DNA from: Eledone cirrhosa
Lineage: Eukaryota
DNA length: 64,000 bases
Direction of reading: 5' to 3'
Assembly (NCBI GenBank): GCA_964016885.1
Contig: OZ024740.1
Span: forward strand, 300,514,001 to 300,578,000
This document shows, piece after piece, positions 1 through 59,667 of this stretch (its first letter is position 1; each line of letters starts with the position of its first letter). A program made the translations under genes and the position numbers. The notes under the pieces were generated by a model. The model saw only the letters and a list, made by a program, of their open reading frames with translations. It made no database searches and was not told the DNA's origin.

Positions 1-306
1 GTATTACAAAATAAAAGTAATATTCATACACAAAGTATGTACAAACTCACTATGATAATATAGAGGATATTCAAAAGGGAACTACTTTAAGCAATAGGTC
101 CATTTAAACTGCATTTAGGATGCTCAGCAACAGATACAAAATTACCGCAATCAATACATATAGAACTTAATGACAGGGTCTGGTGAAGATAATAACAGAC
201 ACAATGTCATAATCAAATGTAAGAAAAATGTTTAATCGTGTCCATGTGTTTGAAAGAAAAGCCTCTTGTTATATAAATAAAGTCATATAAATAAAGAATA
301 CACAGA

Positions 307-5177: not shown

Positions 5178-6458
5178 ATTTAATACAATAACAGAGATAG
5201 CTTAACGCTAAACTCCGACTGGTAACCATCTCACTCAACAAACATTAGGTTATATGTTAGCATAACCCAATTTAAGTGTTTGGGGTGCTAACTATATGTA
5301 TTTTGTGGAAAGCCAGTTGTATTATTTTATGAGATATAATTAAAGTTAAAATATAAGTTTCATTATAAGTTTTCTATAAATTGGGAGAATGTTTCCAGTT
5401 TATGTAGAAGCCTAACATATATTCATGTAAGAATATATTTAGGTGGGCACTTATAAATCTTCAGTGGAACCCCATTAAACTTTGATATAAGAAAAAATTC
5501 TTACCGCAGTTAAAAATCGTGTCTGCTAAGCTGCTCCTTCACGCATCGAATGACCGCCAAATTTGAAATTCCAGCAGTCTTTTGACTGAGGAAGTTTCAT
5601 AGCGTCACGAAGCGGGAAAGGGAGACAACCACGATAAGGAGAATAGAAACAAATAATATACACTCGGGTTAATTAGTTTTTTCAAAAAACATTATCAATC
5701 CAACGTGTTAAGAACTAAATTGAAATTAAAAAAATAAATGTATGCGTGTATTAATTACAAACGCATATAGATATTTTCTTAGGCTAACAACAGAGGTGAT
5801 ACCATTATAACAAATCGCATCACATCACCGCAGCAAATACTGAAGGTTACGCTTTAAAGGCGATAGGGAATGTAAATCTCTGGCCAAATTAAGAGTAAAA
5901 TATTTAATACACGCGGGTTAATTACTTATTTAAAACTATTATCAATTCCACGTGTTAAGAACTCAATTAATTTAAAAAAGTAAATGTATGCATGTAATTA
6001 TTTACACACGCATATATATATTTTCATAGGCTAAAAACAGAGAAGTGACAACCAAAAAACCTCCATATCTCACAACAGTAACAAATACAGAAAGTCATGC
6101 TTATAAGGTACCTGGAAATAAGTACCTCTGGCCAAATCAAGAGTAACATATTTAATACAATAACAGAGATAGCTTAACGCTAAACTCCGACTGGTAACCA
6201 TCTCACTCAACAAACATTACGTTATATGTTAGTATAACCCAATTTAAGTGTTTGGGGTGCTAACTATATGTATTTTGTGGAAAGCCAGTTGTATTATTTT
6301 ATGAGATATAATTAAAGTTAAAATATATCTCTCTTTCCAAACAATTGTTTCATTATAAGTTTTCTACAAATTGGGAGAATGTTTCCAGTTTATGTAGGAG
6401 CCTAACATATATTCATGTAACAATATATTTACGTGGGCACTTATAAATCTTCAGTGGA
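5178..6458 (-). mobile_element. Non-coding element with ~290-bp direct terminal repeats (pLTR-like) and an internal ~250-bp tandem duplication
   Basis: 5178-5468 is repeated at 6150-6458. Approx. 5660-5910 is repeated at approx. 5910-6150. Each terminal repeat carries a hammerhead motif. (TA)n on both sides. Confidence 0.75.
6336..6458 (-). ncRNA. Type I hammerhead ribozyme, long stem II (family M)
   Basis: UCCA CUGAAGA U UUAUAAGU...~78 nt...ACUUAUAA U GAAA CAAUUG UU UGGA. Palindromic stem III, GUU triplet. The sister copy at 5357-5469 has lost stem III. Confidence 0.75.
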
Positions 6459-9800: not shown

Positions 9801-10227
9801 GGAGGAGCACTGTCCATAGCTTTAGCAGAACCTTTTTGGAGATTGTATTATGAAGCTGTGTATTTGTAATGCGGGCTTACGTTAGGTTTGTTGTGTCACA
9901 ATATGGTCGGTGAAATATTGAATGTTTAGTAATGTTTGAGAAGACGAAGAATACGTTAGAAATCTGCAGTGAATAATCTCAAATACTCATTATTTGATGC
10001 GAATATCTATCTCTCTATCTATCTATCTCGAAGAAGATAGACGTGTTTTTGTTTCGCTCCTGCATTTTGTCGGAATTTATTACGAGAAGCGGTAGGTTTG
10101 TTTAAGCTACTTGTTATTTGTTGTGTTTAACCCCTGGGACTGCAGACGTTGGGTAAAATAAATTTCGCCCCTTTTTGGGGCAAAATTTGATTGTTATAAG
10201 TTATCGATAAAAAGTAATTTAGTGACA

Positions 10228-11595
10228 ATGGATGCCATTAACACGACACATGCCACGACCCCCAAGGAAAGTGATAGAGAGAAGGTAGCAGCACAACGCT
10301 GTACTCCTTCTCTCCTCACTCCCGCAAAAGACACCACGGAATCAAAAGAAAAAATTGCGGAAATGGGTGAAAACCCTAAAAGTAACAATTACACAAACAA
10401 GAACAACAATGACAATAACAACACAACCAATAACCGCAACAATGACAATAACCACACAACCAACAACAGCAATAATGACAACAATAAAGGAAAAAAGCAA
10501 GCCAACACGAATAACAACAACAACAATGATAACAACACGAAAGAAAACGGACCCACAGCTGCATTCTCCTTGGCACAGGCGGTCCGAGAAACGCAGACAT
10601 ACAAGGCGCTGGACATCTCGAATGCCAAGAAATTGCTGAAAGAAGCAAGGAATTGTGTAAGTTTCGGGGAAGGTGGGAATTCACAATTACCTCCCCCGAA
10701 GAAATTAGAAGGGACACAATTCTCAGGACCGTAATTTTTAGGAGAGTTTCGAACGCGACTAGACCGTCTCAATTGTCCCAAAGGGAAATTGAGCTGGTCC
10801 TAAGTAGTGCCTGGAAGGATATCGCGTTCATACAGAAAGGGAAACTGTATGGGAGCATATCTGTTTTAATGCAAGATGAATTGGCGGCACGGACATATTC
10901 TGTGTCGCCAATTGTATCCAAAGCATACACCTTTTTCCCCACATATTTGGGGAAAAGAACTGAAAAGATAAGAATCTCGAGCATCAGGCCAAATGTGAGC
11001 ATTTGGTGGGTGCTAACGGGATTCTTAGAAGATGAGGACACACTCCTTTCGATAGGCGAATCCACCGGGGGCGTATTCAGCTGGAATAGCCTTGAAGTTC
11101 TGGTCCAAATGAGACCAGAACGGATAGCAAGAATACCGCAGCGTGTGTCCCTGGATGAAGTCGCCTTCATAAACATTTCTGTTGAGGGCAGGCGGCCTTC
11201 ATCCTACCACTGTTCAAGAAGTGGTCATCTGAGGGCTTCCTGTCCTCTTTTAAATGCCCCCCCCCCCAAGAAAAAAGAAAAGACGCTTCTGCCCTCTCCA
11301 CACACAACAACACAACCACCACTACCACCAACACAACAACAACGGCCACAACAACACGAACAAATAAAAACACAAGACACTGTCCCACCCAACCCCTCCC
11401 ACCTAAAACAAATACAAGCAACCACAACAAAACCACAATATATACCCCTCCCCAACAACACGGAAGATGGCCCCTTATCAACGTCACCCATGACGACGAG
11501 GGAGAACCCTTTTAACCGGTAAAAAGAAAGAAAAGAAGGCTCCACATCAACAAAAATACAACAAACACACAGCCACCAGCACAAACAAAAAAACC
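10228..11595 (+). pseudogene. Tx1-like ORF1 (gag-like nucleic-acid-binding protein), frameshifted
   Basis: Asn-rich N-terminus (10222-10734 frame) continues in the 10653-11522 frame with a degenerate zinc knuckle GRRPSSYHCSRSGHLRASCP and a Pro/Thr/Gln-rich tail. Confidence 0.75.
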
Positions 11596-12970
11596 GCCGA
11601 TGACGTAACAGTAATGGTGTCGTGCGCCTCGGAAATCGGGCAGATCGGCACCGTACTGGAGGAATACGAAAGGTTTACAGGAGCCAAGATGAACCGGGAC
11701 AAGTCCGTCGGTTTGTAACTCGGAACGTGGAGAGGCAAACCGATGCCCTCCGACGGCGTCGTCGGACGCTGGACGGAGGGACCGGTAAAGCTGCTCAGGG
11801 TCTGGTTCGGACCGGATCTCCAGGTGGAGAAAAACTGGAACAAGGTAACGCGCAGGGTGTTTGCACTCGCCCAGAAGTGGGCCGACATAAACCTGAAAGG
11901 TCGAGCGGAGGTGGCGAACACTTATATAGCGTCCGTCATCTACTACCGCTTGACCGTCGTGCCTTGCCCTGCGAAAACGCTCGCCAAAATGGAGCGCGCG
12001 CTCTTCTGATTCCTTTGGAAGAAGCGGGCCCCTTTGGTGAGAAAATCCATCTGCAGTCAACACCAGTCAAACGGAGGGCTGAGGATACTGTGGCTGACGA
12101 TGAGAGGACACGCATTAAGGCTACGGCACCTACAGGTATTTTTCACCGGTCAACTAGTGTGGGCCCCTTTTGTGAGCGAGCCTTTCCGAAACTCGTCTCA
12201 CTCACCGAGCTGCAATCCTGGGTCAAGCAAAGACCGAGAAAAATAGGCGACTGGCACATTGAATGTACCCAGGCGCTCACAGCCCTCTGGCAAGCGGATC
12301 CGGCAATCAGTGGAGACTCAACCTCAACATTCTATAGAGGGTTGGTGCGCAGCAAGTGCGACGACGCTCTCGGAGAGGCTCTGGGCTTGGAGAAAGTAGA
12401 GGTAGCCAGTCCATCCTGTAGGACGATTGGCCCGGGGCCGATGGACAACTTCCAAAAGTCCCTGGCTTGGCAGTGCTACCGAGGAGCTCTACCCGTTCGG
12501 GACAAGCTCTACAGACACGGGTGCCCGGGTAGGGACCCCCTCGAAGAAGATCTGTCCGAGATACGTGCGTGACGAGGAAAACGTCGCGCACGCATTCGTA
12601 CACTGCCCGGGCGTTGCTGACCTGTGGGGATATGTGGAACGACTACTGTTGCGGGTGGGACCAATCCGGTTGACCACCGAGTACATTGTCACGATCAAAC
12701 CGCCTCCCTCCTTTCAAAAACGAAGGAGAGGCGGTTTTCCCTGTGTGATAGCTATGGCGAAAGACGTTGTATGGTGGACGAGGTTGCAAGGGCTGAGGTC
12801 AGACACCTTTTCTCTCCGTCCAACAACTGGACCTTTTTTTCAAGTACCATTTTAGAAGAAGGATCAGAATGGAGAGAGAGGTGCTCCACCCCAGCAAGTT
12901 TTATGAAAGGTGGGTGAAAGTGGCGGGAATGGTCCGAGTGAATGGGCCTTCTCTCTATATCAGCCTGTAG
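11596..12970 (+). pseudogene. Tx1-like ORF2 remnant (RT from the ADD motif to the C-terminal zinc-binding region)
   Basis: ADDVTVMV...EEYERFTGAKMNRDKS, GPVKLLRVWFGPDLQVEKNW, LKGRAEVANTYIASVIYYRL, SNGGLRI, KICPRY...ENVAHAFVHCP. Multiple stops and frameshifts. Confidence 0.9.
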
Positions 12971-13198
12971 GTGAGAGAGGAGAAGAAAGAGGAGAGGATG
13001 GGAGCACCCGCTCTTTGTGCTCCTGAGGAGGAGGCTTGCACAGGTCAACGCCCCCTCCCTATTGAGGACTTCGATTGTTGAATTTCTTTGTTATATGTTT
13101 TTACACGTCCTTTGAAACGTATGTAATCTCTACCCCTTGTATTTGTCACAATTTTTGATGCCCTGGTGGAAAATAAATAGAAAGTTATCTATCTATCT

Positions 13199-14725
13199 AA
13201 GGTTCGAAAGGAGCGAAGCTGAACCGAGACAAATCAGTCGGTTTGCAACGTGGAGAGGCAAACCGATGCCTTCAGATGGCGTCGTCGAACGCTGGACGGA
13301 AGGACCGGTAAAGCTGCTCGGGGTTTGGTTTGGTCCGGACCTGCAGGTAGAGAAGAAGTGGAACGAGTTGACGGCCAAGGTGTTTGCGCTCACCCAGAAG
13401 TGGGCCGAGTGCAAACTATCCTTGAAAGGTCGAGCGGAGGTGGCCAACACTTTTATAGCGCCTGTCATCTACTACCGCTTGACCATCGTGCCTAACCAGC
13501 CAAAACGCTCACCAAAATAAAGCGCGCGCTCTTCCATTTTCTTTGGAAGAAACGGGCTTCTTTTGTGAGAAGATCCATCTGCTGCCAAAACCCTTCAAAC
13601 GGAGGGCTGGGAATGCCGTGCCTGACGATGCGCAAACACGCGCTCAGGCTGCGGACCTCTGCGTATTCCTCACCGGACAACCGGTGTGGGCCCGTTCGTG
13701 AAGCGAGCCTTCCCACAACTCGCTTCGCTGACCGAGCTGCAGACCATGGACAAGCAAATACCGAGGAAAATGAGCGACTGGCACATCGAATGAGCTCAGG
13801 CGCTCACAGTTATCTTGCTAACGGACCCCGCGATTAGTGGAGACTCCACTTCGTCATTCTATAGAGGGTTGGTCCGCAGCAAGTGCGACGACGCGCTCTG
13901 AGAAACTCTAGGCGTAGAAGAGGACGAACTGGCCGGTCTGGTCGGTAGGACCTTCCGCTCGGGACCGATGGACAACTTACACAATTCCCTAGCCGGACAG
14001 TGCTACCGCGGAGCTCTACCAGTTCGTGACAAGCTTTACAGACACGGGCGCCCGGGTAGGGACCCTTCGAAAAAGATCTGTCCGAGATGCGTGCGCGACG
14101 ATGAAACCGTCGTGCATGCAGTTGTACACTGCCCGGGCGTTACCGACCTGTGGGGATATGTAGACTATTGTCGCGGGTGGGACCAATTCAGTTGACCACC
14201 GAGTCCGTTGTCACGATCAATCTGCCACCCTGCTTCAAAAACGAAGGAGATGCGGATTTCCTGTGTGTTATGGCTATGGTGAAAGCGGTTATATTGTGGA
14301 CGAGGTTAAAAGGGCTGAGATCAGACACTTTTCTTTCCGGCGAACAACTGATTCGTTTTATCAAATATCATTTTGGAAGAATAATCAGGAAGGAGAGAGA
14401 GGTGCTGTACCCCAGCAAATGTTATGAAAGGTGGGTGAATGTGGCAAAGATGGCCCGAGCGGTTGGGCCTTCTCTCTATATAAGCCTGTAGGTTGAGGAA
14501 AAAGAGGGGAAGAGGAAGGGAGTACTCACACTTGGTGCTCCTGGAGATATAGGTTTTACTTTTTTTGTCGGAGTGTGTACAACCCATGTTTAACGCCTCC
14601 CCCTATTGGGGATCTCAATTGTTATTTGTTGTTTTATTAATGGTTTTATTTTCATATACCTGTATGTAAACTCTCCATTTGTATTTGTCCACTTCTTTTG
14701 TGCCCTCGTAGCTAATAAAGAAATG
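13199..14725 (+). mobile_element. Second, 5'-truncated and diverged copy of the Tx1-like element, head-to-tail with the first
   Basis: Same ORF2 motifs (WTEGPVKLLGVWFGPDLQVEKKW, LSLKGRAEVANTFIA, KICPRCVRDDETVVHAVVHCP). Ends AATAAAGAAATG followed by (TATC)n at 14726-14790. Confidence 0.9.
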
Positions 14726-14838: not shown

Positions 14839-14890
<52 letters not shown>

Positions 14891-14959
14891 AAAAAGGGAG
14901 GAAATCGAAAATGCAACTGAAGTCTTATTTAAAAAAAATATATATATATTTATTTGGTT

Positions 14960-14997
14960 CCTTTACCGGTTTCGCAGTTCTTCTGCTTTTCAAAAGG
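14960..14997 (-). ncRNA. Minimal type I hammerhead, U3-A8 core variant (family B)
   Basis: Reverse complement reads CCUU UUGAAAA GCAG AAGAA CUGC GAAA CCGG UA AAGG. Confidence 0.8.
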
Positions 14998-15067
14998 TGA
15001 GTTGAGATGGAGGGTCTGTGGTTTTTCTCACATGTGAGAAAATCCACAGACCCTCCATCTCAACTCA

Positions 15068-15105
15068 CCTTTTGAAAAGCAGAAGAACTGCGAAACCGGT
15101 AAAGG
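15068..15105 (+). ncRNA. Minimal type I hammerhead, U3-A8 core variant (family B)
   Basis: CCUU UUGAAAA GCAG AAGAA CUGC GAAA CCGG UA AAGG. Stem I 4 bp, stem II 4 bp, palindromic ACCGGU stem III, GUA triplet. Confidence 0.8.
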
Positions 15106-15254
15106 AACCAAATAAATATATATATTTAAAAAAAAAATAAGACTTCAGTTGCATTTTCGATTTCATCCCTTTTTCTTTATACTTCCACTCGTGTAGGACA
15201 CCTCGGTTATTTTTCATTTTGTAAAAACAAAAACAAAAAAAACCTCACTTTCTA

Positions 15255-15326
<72 letters not shown>

Positions 15327-15480: not shown

Positions 15481-16098
15481 CAGCGGCGGGTAAAATTTAC
15501 CTTCAAGGACAGCAATCAGAAACTAGAAGTGTGTTGATCCTCAAAAATGATAGGAAGAAAGAAAAATAAATATAGAAAATGGACGAAACAAGATGTCTGT
15601 ATGTGAGGAAACGACCGAAGCTATGTCCGTTCTATTCGACGCGGTTCATCTCTTAGGCATTAGAATTTCCGGTGATGTATACTGCATTTAAAATGTAAGT
15701 TGAATTTTCTCACTCTGTCTATCTTGTTCGATTTATTTTTTATTGTCTCCCTGTAAATGGTCAAGCCTGGTTTATCTTATCTTTGATGTACCGTCACCTG
15801 CCCCAAGCATTTTAACACGGCGCTATTCTCTTTTCATCACAGTGAAGTTAACTACCGCTAACAAACCGTTCCCAAGCCTAATTAAACAATGTATACTATC
15901 ATTACATATTATTCCGCATATGAATGTTCTGTTCGGTACACTTCCAGCAGATCGGGACCGCAGATCTGCTGCAGGAATCCGGGTATACTAAAATTCTTCC
16001 CCACACAAGACGTCTTCCTCACTGATTAACGAAAGTTAATCTGGCCAGCTGGGTTCAAATTTTAGTAATACGAACATAATTGGCCATTCAGTGAACGA

Positions 16099-16147
<49 letters not shown>

Positions 16148-16348
16148 ACTGAGAGATGACGCATGTCGAATAGACAGAACATACCATCGGTCGTTTCCTC
16201 ACTCACTGAATGGCCAATTAAGTTCGTATTACTAAAATTTGAACCCAGCTGGCCAGATTAACTTTCGTTAATCAGTGAGGAAGACGGCTTGTGTGAGGAA
16301 GAATGTTAGTATACCCGGATTCCTGCAGCAAATTCTGCGGTCCCGATC

Positions 16349-16484: not shown

Positions 16485-16621
16485 ATCGTCTCAAAGTGTA
16501 CGACCATTGTAACTTATGTTTATAGCCCTGCTATCCTCTTCATATGCATGGAGCGCTTGTCTGCATAATATAGAAGTTGCGTTTCGCTAATTTCTACCCG
16601 CCGAAATGCGATTCTCGCTAA

Positions 16622-16675
<54 letters not shown>

Positions 16676-16812
16676 TTAGCGAGAATCGCATTTCGGCGGG
16701 TAGAAATTAGCGAAACGCAACTTCTATATTATGCAGACAAGCGCTCCATGCATATGAAGAGGATAGCAGGGCTATAAACATAAGTTACAATGGTCGTACA
16801 CTTTGAGACGAT
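16485..16812. repeat. Perfect ~140-bp inverted repeat centred on a (TA)n tract
   Basis: ATCGTCTCAAAG...CTCGCTAAATTTA (TA)n TAAATTTAGCGAG...CTTTGAGACGAT. Confidence 0.85.
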
Positions 16813-19964: not shown

Positions 19965-20018
<54 letters not shown>

Positions 20019-20020
<2 letters not shown>

Positions 20021-20456
20021 AAAGTTATATTTAAATTGTTGTGTTACAACTAGTAAATATTTATAACTGATATAAAAGCACTCGACAAATATTTGGAGTA
20101 TATTTACAATATTAAATAAATGGAAACTATATTTATAAAACCATATCTATTTCATTATATATATTTCAGGGATAACATATTAACAATATGCTATGCCTTC
20201 CTCATACAAAATACAATATAAACAGTTTAATAGATAAATAGATTCGACATACCGTAACAACATCTACTTGCATTTGAGAAGGTTGATTTGTATGTAAGTA
20301 GATGTTGTTACGGTATGTCGAATCTATTTATCTATAAAACTGTTTATATTGTATTTTGTATGAGGAAGGCATAGCATATTGTTAATATGTTATCCCTGAA
20401 ATATATATAATGAAATAGATATGGTTTTATAAATATAGTTTCCATTTATTTAATAT

Positions 20457-20458
<2 letters not shown>
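20019..20458. mobile_element. PLE-pLTR-like foldback (family D), arms approx. 20107-20272 / 20295-20458, with a C3-mutated hammerhead in both arms
   Basis: Homologous to 28620-28838. UAUUUUGU AUGAGGA AGG...CCU GAAA UAUAUA UA AUGAAAUA at 20352-20417. Confidence 0.75.
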
Positions 20459-20508
<50 letters not shown>

Positions 20509-25283: not shown

Positions 25284-25408
25284 TGCATATATAGTGTATT
25301 TTGCAATACACCATATGCTTAATTAAAAGCATTTCGAAGACCTTACGCTATTATTTTAGAGTAGTGACAATCTCACTTATTTTAATTTTCAGCAAACAGG
25401 GGAGATAA

Positions 25409-25453
25409 AGTTGACGGAGTTCTGTTTCGCACTTTTTGGTGCTTATCAAAGCT
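25409..25453 (-). ncRNA. Minimal type I hammerhead, U3-A8 (family C, monomer 1)
   Basis: AGCU UUGAUAA GCAC CAAAAA GUGC GAAA CAGAACUCCG UC AACU. Confidence 0.72.
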
Positions 25454-25727
25454 AAGTACTCCGCCTGTTTGCTGAAAATCATGAATGTTTGATTCTTATA
25501 GATTTCTAGTAATAATCAGGAATTGATTATACAGAGCGGTTGCCGGTCAAGCAGAAATTGAAAATGAGAATTGGTGCTCTGAAATAGCGATATATATATG
25601 AATGTATATATAGTGTATTTTGCAATACACTGTATGCTTAATTAAAAGCATTTCGAATACCTTACGCTATTGTTTAAGAGTAGTGACAGTCTCACTTACT
25701 TTAATTTTCAGCAAGCCGGAGAGATAA

Positions 25728-25772
25728 AGCAGACAGATCTCTGTTTCGCACTTGTTGGTGCTTATCAAATCT
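25728..25772 (-). ncRNA. Minimal type I hammerhead, U3-A8 (family C, monomer 2)
   Basis: AGAU UUGAUAA GCAC CAACAA GUGC GAAA CAGAGAUCUG UC UGCU. Confidence 0.72.
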
Positions 25773-26068
25773 AAGAACTCGGCCTGTTTGCTGAACATCA
25801 TGCATGTTTGATTCTTATAGAATTCTAGTAATAGTCAGGAACTGATTATACAGAGCTGTTGCCGGGCATGCAGAAATTCAAAATTAGAATTGTTGCTTTG
25901 AAATAGCGATATATATATGAATGTATATATAGTGTATTTTGCAAAACACTGTATGCTTAATTAAAAGCATTTCGAATACCTTACGCTCCCTATAATCAGT
26001 TCCTGATTATTACTAGAATTCTATAAGAATCAAACATTCATGATGTTCAGCAAACAGGCGGAGTTCTT

Positions 26069-26113
26069 ACCTTCGATAAGCACCAAAACGTGCGAAACAG
26101 AGCTCTGTCAGCT
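26069..26113 (+). ncRNA. Minimal type I hammerhead (family C, inverted monomer)
   Basis: ACCU UCGAUAA GCAC CAAAAC GUGC GAAA CAGAGCUCUG UC AGCU. Fully palindromic stem III. Confidence 0.68.
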
Positions 26114-26290
26114 TTATCTCCCCTGTTTGCTGAAAATTAAAGTAAGTGAGACTGTCACTACTCAAAACAATTGCGTAAGGTCTTCGAAATACTTTTAATT
26201 AAGCATACAGTGTATTGCAAAATACACTGTATATATATTCATATATATATATCGCTATTTCAGAGCACCAATTCTAATCTTATATATATG

Positions 26291-28527: not shown

Positions 28528-28641
28528 CACTTTGACTTATTAAAATAATATAAACAACTCACTATCCGGATGGCTTCCAAAAATAATGGTTGCATTTTAA
28601 TACGGTACGTCAAAGCTTATTTGTAAAACTGTTATATATTG

Positions 28642-28706
28642 TATTTTGTCTGATGAAGGCATACCATAATTGAATTTGGTATCCCTGAAATATGTATAAT
28701 GATATA
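28642..28706 (+). ncRNA. Type I hammerhead, canonical core, AUA triplet (family D)
   Basis: UAUUUUGU CUGAUGA AGG C AUACCA...UGGUAU C CCU GAAA UAUGUA UA AUGAUAUA. Confidence 0.68.
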
Positions 28707-28860
28707 AATATGGTTTTATAAATATAGTTTCCATTTATTAATATCGTATATCTACTCCAAATACTTGTCGAGTGCTTTATATCAGCTATAAAAATATTTA
28801 CTTGTTGTATCCCAACAATTTTAAATAGAACTTTTGCGTATATATATATATATATATATA

Positions 28861-29248: not shown

Positions 29249-30640
29249 GAGAGAGAGAGAGAGAGAGAGAGTGAGAGAGGAAGAAAAATATGAGGTGTAT
29301 ATAGATAGAGTGAGCGAGAGAATGATATAAATAGTGCGTGGGTGATTGAGTGAATTTTACTGGATACCTTTATAGAAATCTTGTAGCTGGCATAGGGAGT
29401 TCATGAAAAGATGCTTCCGCCTTTGGAGGGGGATATAAAATAATACACTTTTGGGGAATTATATTCTATGTTAGAGCTTAAAACATGAAAACACATAAGT
29501 AAAATCTTGCACGTAATATAATCAGATATCATAAACAATACACTATCTAATCAGGACTCTACCTAAATCCACCAACTGATTCTATAAAATCATACATGGA
29601 GACAGACACCAGGCATAAGCGCATGTACACACACTTGCACTCCCTGGGCCAGATACACACTCTCAGCATTACACAACACTATAGAAATACACTTACTTTT
29701 TTCCCCAACACTCGCAGCCATTCACATACCAATCAAATCCAAGCTACACATGCAGTACTAAAGTATGCTAACACAGCGTCAAATAGGACGCTATAACGAC
29801 ACTAATCCAACTGCTACACATAAAATGACTCTTATCCTTGAACCCTAGAGCAAAAGTAACACTCACCCAAAGCACGCTGCCCCACCCCTATAAACAGACA
29901 CACACTGTAATCGTAGGCCGACTAAATTGCACAACAAAGAAATAAAAAATACACACACACAAGCACACAAATAAACATCATATCTCTACTTTCTCTATTT
30001 CAATAGAAACTCTGAATTCTAACACCCCAGCGCACCAACCATATTCACTGAACTAGAACAATTCTCCCCATCCCATTTCTCTTGACCATTCTGTAAAAGG
30101 CTACAAAATAAATTCCCAAATACGGGCGTGAATTTAATGAACTTGCTCACGTGACAGTCATAATTTCATTTATAACCAATCAAATTAGATTTCAACACAT
30201 CAATCATACTCAGAACAACTCTCTCCAACCCCTTCTTTCTTGACCATCAGCAGAAAATTCTCGAAATGGCTATAAAAAAATTCCAAAATACGGGCGCGAA
30301 TTAATGTACTTGTTCACGTGTCAGTCATAATTTCATTTATAACCAATCAAATTACATTTATAAAAAAAAAGCCTTACTGAGCCACTTTTCTTTAAGTAAA
30401 AAGAAATTCAAACACAAACTGCTGCGAAAGCTTATTCACGTGACAGCATCAACCAACCAAACTTCACTAATATATGAAAAAACAACCTGAGGCCTCGCTA
30501 TGTTTGAAGAACTGTGTAACGCGAACTGGCGCAAAATTTATTATACTTATTCACCAACCAATCAAACTACGTCTCTAAAAACCTGGCAATTAGAGCCACA
30601 TTTTTTCCATATAAAACTAGTAACATTCAAAGACTAAACA

Positions 30641-30790
30641 GATGTGAGAAAAACCACAGACCCTCCATCTCAACTCTAATTTTGAAAAGCAGAGGAACTG
30701 CGAAATCGGTAAAGGAAACAAATAAATATTTATATTTAAAAAAAAAAAGACTCCAGTTGCATTTTCGATTTCATATGTTTTCCTTATATA
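30641..30790 (+). mobile_element. Single arm of family B with decayed hammerhead (30678-30715)
   Basis: GATGTGAGAAAAACCACAGACCCTCCATCTCAACTC...TTGAAAAGCAGAGGAACTGCGAAATCGGTAAAGG. Confidence 0.8.
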
Positions 30791-55588: not shown

Positions 55589-55591
<3 letters not shown>

Positions 55592-55945
55592 GAAAAAAGC
55601 TGAAATCGAAAATGCAACTGGAGTCTTGTTTTTATAAAAAATATATATATATATTTGGTTCCTTTACCGGTTTAGCAGTTCTTCTGCTTTTCAAAAGTAG
55701 AGTTGAGATGGAGGGTCTGTGGTTTTTCTCACATCTGTGAGAAAAACCACAGACCCTCCATCTCAACTCACCTTTTGAAAAGCAGAACTGCGAAACCGGT
55801 AAGGGAACCAAATAATTATATATATTTAAAAAAAAAATAAGACTCCAGTTGCATTTTCGATTTCATCTTTTTTTCTTTATACTTTCACTCGTGTAGGACA
55901 CCTCGGTTAATTTTCATTTTGTAAAAAAAACCTCACTTTCTAATA
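55589..55945. mobile_element. Second family B foldback; hammerheads at 55661-55698 (-, G12 mutated) and 55771-55805 (+)
   Basis: Centre TTCTCACATCTGTGAGAA. Arms and tail homologous to 14887-15257. Confidence 0.85.
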
Positions 55946-59193: not shown

Positions 59194-59504
59194 TATTTAT
59201 AAGTAAAATGTTTTAATATGTCGCACAAATGGAAAAATGTAGGACAAAGTTGAAAATATTAATACAATTAGAGATTTTAAGAACGTTTATTTACAATAAT
59301 TTACAACTCTACCATTTTCACAAGTTTCATGTTTTTCAAACGTTAAGAGAGTTGGTGAGATGCATGGCTATGCCAACTGGTAAATTCAATTAGATGTATG
59401 TGTGTATTTTCAAAAACGTACTAGAAAAGCCGTACATCAATATGGTGCCTCACTTTGTTTTAGGGCACCGCCGAAATAGGATCTCGGTAAAATTATATAT
59501 ATAT

Positions 59505-59652
59505 ATAAAGAAAAAGAGACGAAATCGAAAATGCAACTGGAGTCTTATTTTTTTTTAAAATATATATATTTATTTGGTTCCTTTACCGGTTTCGCAGTTC
59601 GTCTGCTTTTCAAAAGGTGAGTTGAGATGGAGGGTCTGTGGTTTTTCTCACA
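59505..59652 (-). mobile_element. Single arm of family B with intact U3-A8 hammerhead (59580-59617)
   Basis: Same two end points as the left arms of the foldbacks. Confidence 0.82.
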
Positions 59653-59667
59653 TATATATATATATAC

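Follow-up and report, generated by a model that had tools for sequence, protein, structure and literature searches.

An inverted pLTR, a palindromic junction and a one-sided tail belong to the published anatomy of Penelope-like elements (PLEs) (accessible sections of PMC3846280 and PMC8557442). PMC8557442, in its available text, describes the way in which PLEs form these inverted repeats and tails as 'undefined', and the only in vitro study of a PLE, as far as its accessible sections go, demonstrated internal RT initiation for Anolis Poseidon PAc with unprocessed RNA as the main template, leaving the later integration steps open (PMC11167929). Here we analysed a window of 64,000 nucleotides from Eledone cirrhosa that holds a palindrome of this type. 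Like the EN+ PLEs in the accessible portions of the published accounts, the locus combines a head-to-head inverted 5'-truncated copy, a palindromic junction, a tail at one end, (TA)n targets and a pLTR hammerhead (PMC3846280, PMC8557442). In contrast to these accounts, half of the arms here have their stop in a zone of 15 bp, which results in a stereotyped palindrome of 370 bp at more than 1,200 loci, the tail measures 63-74 nt rather than 30-40 bp (PMC3846280, PMC8557442), and a rule of one short and one long arm could be counted.

The feature at 14887-15257 is a pair of head-to-head pLTR copies of a Penelope-like retrotransposon (Table 1). Positions are numbered from +1 at window 15034 in the direct arm, with negative numbers lying upstream in the parent element. 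The palindrome is centred between 15032 and 15033, its arms (14887-15032 and 15033-15180) differ from each other at several positions, and (TA)n lies on both sides. The tail is present at one end only, and in full-length parents the same stretch continues into the start codon. The palindrome, the U3-A8 hammerhead on each strand and the one-sided tail named in the preliminary description were all present by sequence and motif scan, and its attribution to a PLE proved right, as a parent with RT and GIY-YIG was found.

Table 1. Coordinates of the palindromic locus and related copies in the window.
Feature	Position	Strand	Basis or remark
Left (TA)n target microsatellite	14848..14886		
Inverted short pLTR arm	14887..15032	-	element ~-1 to +148; 3' end merging into (TA)n
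Minimal U3-A8 hammerhead motif, inverted arm	14960..14997	-	motif scan + fold
Head-to-head junction, 2-nt form, at predicted RNA 5' end	15030..15035		
Direct pLTR arm, up to short 3' end site (+148/+150, TA run)	15033..15181	+	
Minimal U3-A8 hammerhead motif, direct arm; predicted cut after 15101 (+68)	15068..15105	+	motif scan + fold
One-sided tail to long 3' end site (+213 to +222)	15182..15255	+	
Right (TA)n target microsatellite	15256..15323		
Older 5'-truncated copy keeping TATA box + 3' UTR	29949..30790	+	
Second palindromic insertion (junction of 4-nt form; left-arm hammerhead w/o G12)	55589..55945	+	sequence + motif scan
Solo short arm, start at -1	59504..59653	-	sequence + motif scan

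The second palindromic insertion had been described as having nearly the same inversion point, outer end and tail as the first. Its outer end and tail do so, but its junction has a 4-nt instead of a 2-nt spacer, and only its plus-strand hammerhead copy passes the motif scan, the left-arm copy having lost G12. The proposed independence of the two loci stood: their flanks contained no collinear sequence over the ~6.4 kb compared, and segmental duplication was therefore ruled out as their origin. A solo arm ending at the inner boundary was borne out at 59504-59653, which starts at -1 and adjoins (TA)n; the copy at 30641, also described as a solo arm, is none, since it extends upstream to at least 29949 and is older (72-85% identical) and 5'-truncated. 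Within the second palindrome, the arms at 55589-55734 and 55736-55880 differ at a subfamily-diagnostic dinucleotide (1 of 2 discordant pairs among 33), and these discordant arms may record two RNA templates.

Several other repeats lie in the window. A third repeat family of like anatomy (20016-20466 and 28601-28834) has 175-nt inverted arms with an 18-nt spacer, a ~83-nt one-sided tail, (TA)n flanks and many copies in the fetched loci, and a C3-G8 hammerhead motif is found in its relative at 28650. Further long inverted repeats occur at 15964-16333, 16485-16812 and 25355-26167, with (TA)n between the arms in two of them. A GC-richer block (10162-14725) contains several open frames and a TATA/AATAAA-bearing end just upstream of the palindrome; it is probably another retroelement, and a weak zf-RVT match at 12406-12852 (E 0.003) falls below cut-off.

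To place the arms in their parent element we searched the window's genome (3.0 Gb), in which a 22-nt pLTR word has 16,942 exact occurrences, and fetched 20 long copies (L131-L150). Copies extend upstream via ~1 kb of untranslated sequence into an ORF that has RT (RVT_1, E 1.9e-6, slightly below the curated cut-off) plus a GIY-YIG at its C terminus (PF01541, E 1.3e-6). The translation contains the RT motifs DKG and YLDD, the CCHH of the endonuclease was read by eye as two Cys within the GIY-YIG core and two His, and the linker before the endonuclease, C-X4-C-x-x-C, fits the CX2-5CxxC pattern that PMC8557442 gives, in its accessible text, for Neptune/Nematis-type PLEs. The parent has the hallmarks of a canonical EN+ PLE, namely a PLE-type RT, a C-terminal GIY-YIG and pLTRs arising from partial tandems, direct or inverted. 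From the anatomy of the parent copies it follows that the palindrome arm is the pLTR and that its hammerhead motif, a predicted ribozyme, is sense to the ORF. A direct 5' pLTR was present in 10 of the 20 long copies and ran through +213 into an ATG ~30 nt beyond, which puts the two 3' end sites inside the RNA.

The parent also carries an upstream ORF of ~400 aa whose overlap with the RT ORF, in the -1 frame, spans a run of T TTT TTA (oriented ~5700-5800, L131-L150), with six T in 18 of the 20 copies and seven in 2. We take this run to be a classic slippery heptamer, and a programmed -1 frameshift between the two ORFs is likely. A Pfam scan of a 357-aa part of the upstream ORF gave no match; a frameshift-separated ORF1 is noted for some PLEs (PMC8557442, Fig. 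1 legend).

Five hammerhead-like matches were detected by motif scan in the whole window: one in each arm of 14887-15180, and those in the + arm at 55775, in the solo at 59613 and at 28650, the last an unrelated one. Rfam at gathering score over the whole window gave 0 matches. In both arms of the first locus stem III is palindromic (plus strand, 15068-15105; minus strand, 14997-14960). The isolated 50-nt motif folded no better than shuffles (z -0.64), and the hammerhead was therefore identified by motif rather than by energy. As RNA, the full unit folded as a single rod (-235.9 kcal/mol, z -32.6) in which both hammerhead motifs are buried. The preliminary description had offered two fates for such a transcript, co-transcriptional cleavage or locking as dsRNA. 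Since the antisense arm emerges before the sense ribozyme whichever strand is transcribed, the folding model favours locking and makes cleavage unlikely.

Viroid-like ambisense rod RNAs are replicating circular RNAs with active ribozymes in both polarities. Here the two motifs are one duplicated pLTR, and the 'ambisense' architecture earlier suggested for the locus is not supported; the two-strand hammerhead is probably a by-product of pLTR duplication rather than a new class of ambisense ribozyme RNA. In Schistosoma, according to the accessible part of PMC4209133, pairs of minimal hammerheads on opposite strands lie 100-700 bp apart; the U3-A8 core is described there too, and minimal motifs do not cleave singly.

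We then asked where arms of this family end across the genome. Because random 10-kb tiles yielded too few arms (3 in 38 tiles), we used a motif-ordered sample consisting of the first 100 of the 16,942 word matches in chromosome order (C1, 0.4-26.5 Mb), which is biased towards younger copies and not towards any 5' end. Half of the arms (n = 100) had their 5' end in a 15-bp zone at -6..+8, and 40 of these 50 fell at -4..+1; the others ended upstream (28) or downstream (22), several upstream values being minimum distances, as the alignments break off at CA repeats. A further group of ends coincided with the internal TA run at +75..+92 (9/100). The inner boundary, previously described as fixed, is thus far from random but amounts to a hot spot that takes in 50 of 100 arms. 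At the 3' end, 59 arms were long, 38 short and 3 other, confirming the recurring outer end and tail, which fit the published PLE tail signature (accessible sections of PMC11167929 and PMC3846280). Among the 10 full-length copies with a direct 5' pLTR, 1 began in the hot zone, 8 upstream and 1 downstream; the full-length copy L136 starts at -1.

Within the same 100 arms we identified by eye 41 head-to-head pairs, including one with a 390-bp gap (perhaps two insertions) and two that resemble local duplication. With the hot zone for pairs taken as -10..+8, both arms lay in it in 16 pairs, one arm in it and one downstream in 9, both downstream in 7, and 9 pairs had an arm upstream of -20. In none of these last 9 did the partner fall in the hot zone, against an expectation of 8.6 mixed pairs, a result reached in a fraction of 1.5e-5 of 200,000 shuffles. 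Every scorable pair joined one short and one long 3' end (39/39; 2 with a broken partner were unscored). The reach of the two arms can be unequal by up to kilobases (-52 vs -4221; -883 vs -442), and the arm that goes further 5' can be either one: -4 may be reached by the short arm or by the long, as expected for two equivalent cDNA ends.

Arms of a pair also tended to have alleles in common. Among pairs from all loci fetched (51 pairs, not a random set), the two arms agreed at +113 in 41/41 (23 C/C, 18 T/T; 51% expected), at +136/137 in 37/42 (39% expected) and at +33..35 in 31/33. An exact match to the tight-junction pattern was found at 1,241 loci in the genome. The first 50 of these, sorted by eye, comprised 22 with a 7-nt spacer, 13 with a 4-nt spacer, 6 of the 2-nt form seen at the 14887 locus and 9 others. 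All three main forms can be written as cDNA ends at -4 or -3 with 0-3 paired bases, and the 7-nt junction, a palindrome about one central base, would represent identical ends annealed across a T-T mismatch.

Two loci showed further local rearrangement. At L091:15-1569, ~25 head-to-tail 54-bp units of pLTR +2..+62 stand directly before a full pLTR arm, and this array starts at the same boundary as the palindrome arms. Whole palindromic insertions with their flanks are locally duplicated in tandem at L096-L100 (C5:84.95-84.97 Mb) and at L080.

In the parent, TATAAAA begins at -33, 30 nt before A(-3). The spacing of this TATA-like box was constant in 11/11 aligned copies of several ages, 9 of which have the exact heptamer, so that the boundary zone sits 30 nt below the box and 72 nt above the ribozyme cut (+68). 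The usual TATA-to-start spacing is 30 nt. A sister family, 72-78% alike, has CATAAAA at ~-36 and the same CAGAT at the homologous boundary. Among its 30 best-scoring loci (3 of them repeats of one another), retrieved with a query from downstream of the boundary, palindromes folded at CAGAT in L231, L234, L237, L247, L248, L251 and L254, with the 7-nt junction recurring, solos started at CAGAT in L252, L253 and L256, and ~11 loci ran on upstream; its pairs likewise had one short and one long end. In a sister PLE family (L140:9586-10000, L133:2935-3345) the hammerhead core reads GCAA instead of GAAA. Together with the TATA-like box, these positions suggest that the fold point likely marks the RNA start (cap site) of the element. 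Transcription starts inside the pLTR have been reported for Penelope (PMC2377424) and Chlamys-3 (PMC8557442), though in the accessible text the D. virilis Penelope promoter is internal and TATA-less (PMC2377424), unlike the upstream TATA proposed here.

Two other origins of the boundary were ruled out. The ribozyme cut lies 72 nt downstream, and its position below the boundary means that palindrome templates were uncleaved. A splice acceptor was rejected as copies keep -4 and -3 and have no common upstream exon. We also looked by eye at arms broken at +58..+71, taking the first 100 of the 713 listed: ~15 ended at apparent +69, 8 at +71, 7 at +67 and the remainder at ≤6 per position, ~35-40 being indels or deletions. 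Any peak of ends at the ribozyme cut is therefore weak and rare, and TA microhomology confounds it; this agrees with unprocessed RNA being the main template of PAc (PMC11167929) and with the lack of cleavage by single minimal motifs (PMC4209133). No cap-derived extra G was evident at solo 5' ends.

We consider it probable, judging from the arrangement of the copies, that a palindrome arises in a single event: the cut target's two ends prime on the same uncleaved RNA, at internal positions that are fixed, each cDNA runs off at the predicted start, and the two are then joined. The endonuclease would cut both strands within (TA)n; priming by one target end would take place at the TA run at +146..151 and by the other at +211..219, on a single RNA. 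The two cDNAs would proceed 5', the second displacing the first, and with a pLTR at the RNA start both would halt at -4/-3. Joining of the halted cDNAs through 1-4 nt of microhomology would give the 370-bp palindrome, while one alone joined to the flank would give a solo arm; with a downstream pLTR as template, both arms would be truncated at varied upstream points. The RNA copied could be a full-length or multimeric transcript, through its 5' pLTR, or a short one made from any 3' pLTR that bears a promoter. With 1 of 10 full-length copies starting in the hot zone, multimeric templates or template jumps would be needed, and multimeric transcripts have been proposed for PLEs (accessible text of PMC11167929). 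The product itself is likely a dead end, because it lacks the TATA box. Against the derivation of both arms from one RNA, arm concordance can also be obtained from gene conversion within palindromes or from cDNA snap-back, and the discordant arms at 55589 hint that two RNAs are sometimes used.

Snap-back, in which the first cDNA runs off at the RNA start, turns back on its 3' end to serve as its own template, and is joined at the internal TA run to the remaining target end, is unlikely in our judgement, although it directly accounts for arm concordance and the short-plus-long rule. A small hairpin is compatible with the 4-nt junction (13/50), and self-priming has been proposed for such junctions (PMC3846280, in the part accessible). 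However, the commonest junction (22/50) would require a 1-nt loop or an untemplated base, either arm may reach further 5' by kilobases, and PAc extends both target strands in vitro (PMC11167929, accessible sections).

Instead of an RNA start, the boundary could be a place on long templates where RT pauses or where microhomology favours ends. Pairing of its bases with (TA)n, (GT)n or (GA)n flanks is possible, and ends cluster a second time at the internal TA run (+75..+92). We regard this as quite improbable: no mixed pairs occurred (0 of 9), there is little structure just upstream (z -1.46), far fewer ends are drawn to the better TA run at +82..+92, and position relative to the TATA-like box is kept in the diverged family.

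The preliminary description suggested a defined ~370-bp non-autonomous unit or a programmed template switch, and a palindrome that copies itself via its own RNA, possibly processed by ribozymes on both strands, would be consistent with the 1,241 tight-junction loci and their few stereotyped forms. This reading is very hard to sustain. Junctions vary (22/13/6/9) and occur in several forms in both orientations, alleles agree between arms within each subfamily (41/41) instead of being arm-specific, solo arms share the boundary, the unit has no TATA box and buries its ribozymes in a perfect rod, and beyond the local duplications no tandem arrays were seen. Self-priming on an antisense transcript with its 3' end at the boundary, proposed for palindromic PLE junctions (PMC3846280, accessible part), also has very little to recommend it here, since in two families the antisense RNA must end precisely 30 nt below the TATA box of the sense strand, and solos adjoining (TA)n have the same stop with no fold involved. 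An assembly artefact can practically be dismissed: although no read or contig spanning the 14887 locus was found (AT-rich ends were skipped), its arms differ at several positions, dozens of loci repeat the short-plus-long rule and the junction microhomology, and head-to-head joints at varied positions are present in contigs of run X1, with one in raw reads of X19 and X20.

The two-ended priming that we favour resembles PAc in its two internal start sites bounding the tail, the extension of both target strands, the uncleaved template and a product length set by the template 5' end (accessible sections of PMC11167929). It differs in that the start sites here are TA runs matching the (TA)n target while PAc sites lack target homology, and in that genomic pairs always have one of each site, whereas PAc shows no strand difference between them (PMC11167929). 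LINE-1 twin priming likewise uses two target ends on one RNA, microcomplementary joining and correlated arm lengths (R 0.76), so the comparison of partner 5' ends is not unique to a template end; its second priming, however, is at variable sites and gives inversion with little duplication, whereas here both sites are fixed and the same stretch is copied twice (accessible text of bioRxiv 10.1101/2024.08.27.596794). Non-LTR retrozymes are also non-coding and pLTR-derived with a type I hammerhead, but they are head-to-tail tandems cut to monomers, while the palindrome is head-to-head with ends off the cut site (bioRxiv 10.64898/2026.07.22.740005, accessible part). In place of head-to-tail units each bearing a type I hammerhead, we found head-to-head pairs and solos.

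MITEs have terminal inverted repeats at both ends and a DNA-transposon parent; this unit has an unpaired tail at one end and an RT element as parent. Retroviral minus-strand strong-stop DNA is a short, fixed-length cDNA made from a primer near the 5' end by run-off at the cap site. The product proposed here would differ in being target-DNA-primed and directly integrated, with no tRNA primer.

The palindrome is a real, common feature of a known element class, and the regularity of its boundary and pairing is unreported: we found no account of a start-site-limited palindrome or of counted pairing rules in the open-access literature, and the accessible part of PMC13282606 mentions nothing on palindromes. 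On balance we lean slightly towards viewing these palindromes as the genome-wide fossil record of a PLE integration step, a 'double strong-stop' in which the two ends of one break prime on a single uncleaved RNA, at fixed TA sites, and the cDNAs run to the cap site. The thousands of copies yield testable rules, namely a short and a long arm, a common allele, a 5' limit just below the TATA box and rare use of ribozyme-cut RNA, and the more than 1,000 perfect 146-bp hairpins in the genome are possible sources of dsRNA. If true, a double strong-stop would account, as one mechanism and with no need of an antisense template, for head-to-head pLTRs, the one-sided tail and solo pLTRs, and PLE transcription starts would be readable from DNA alone.
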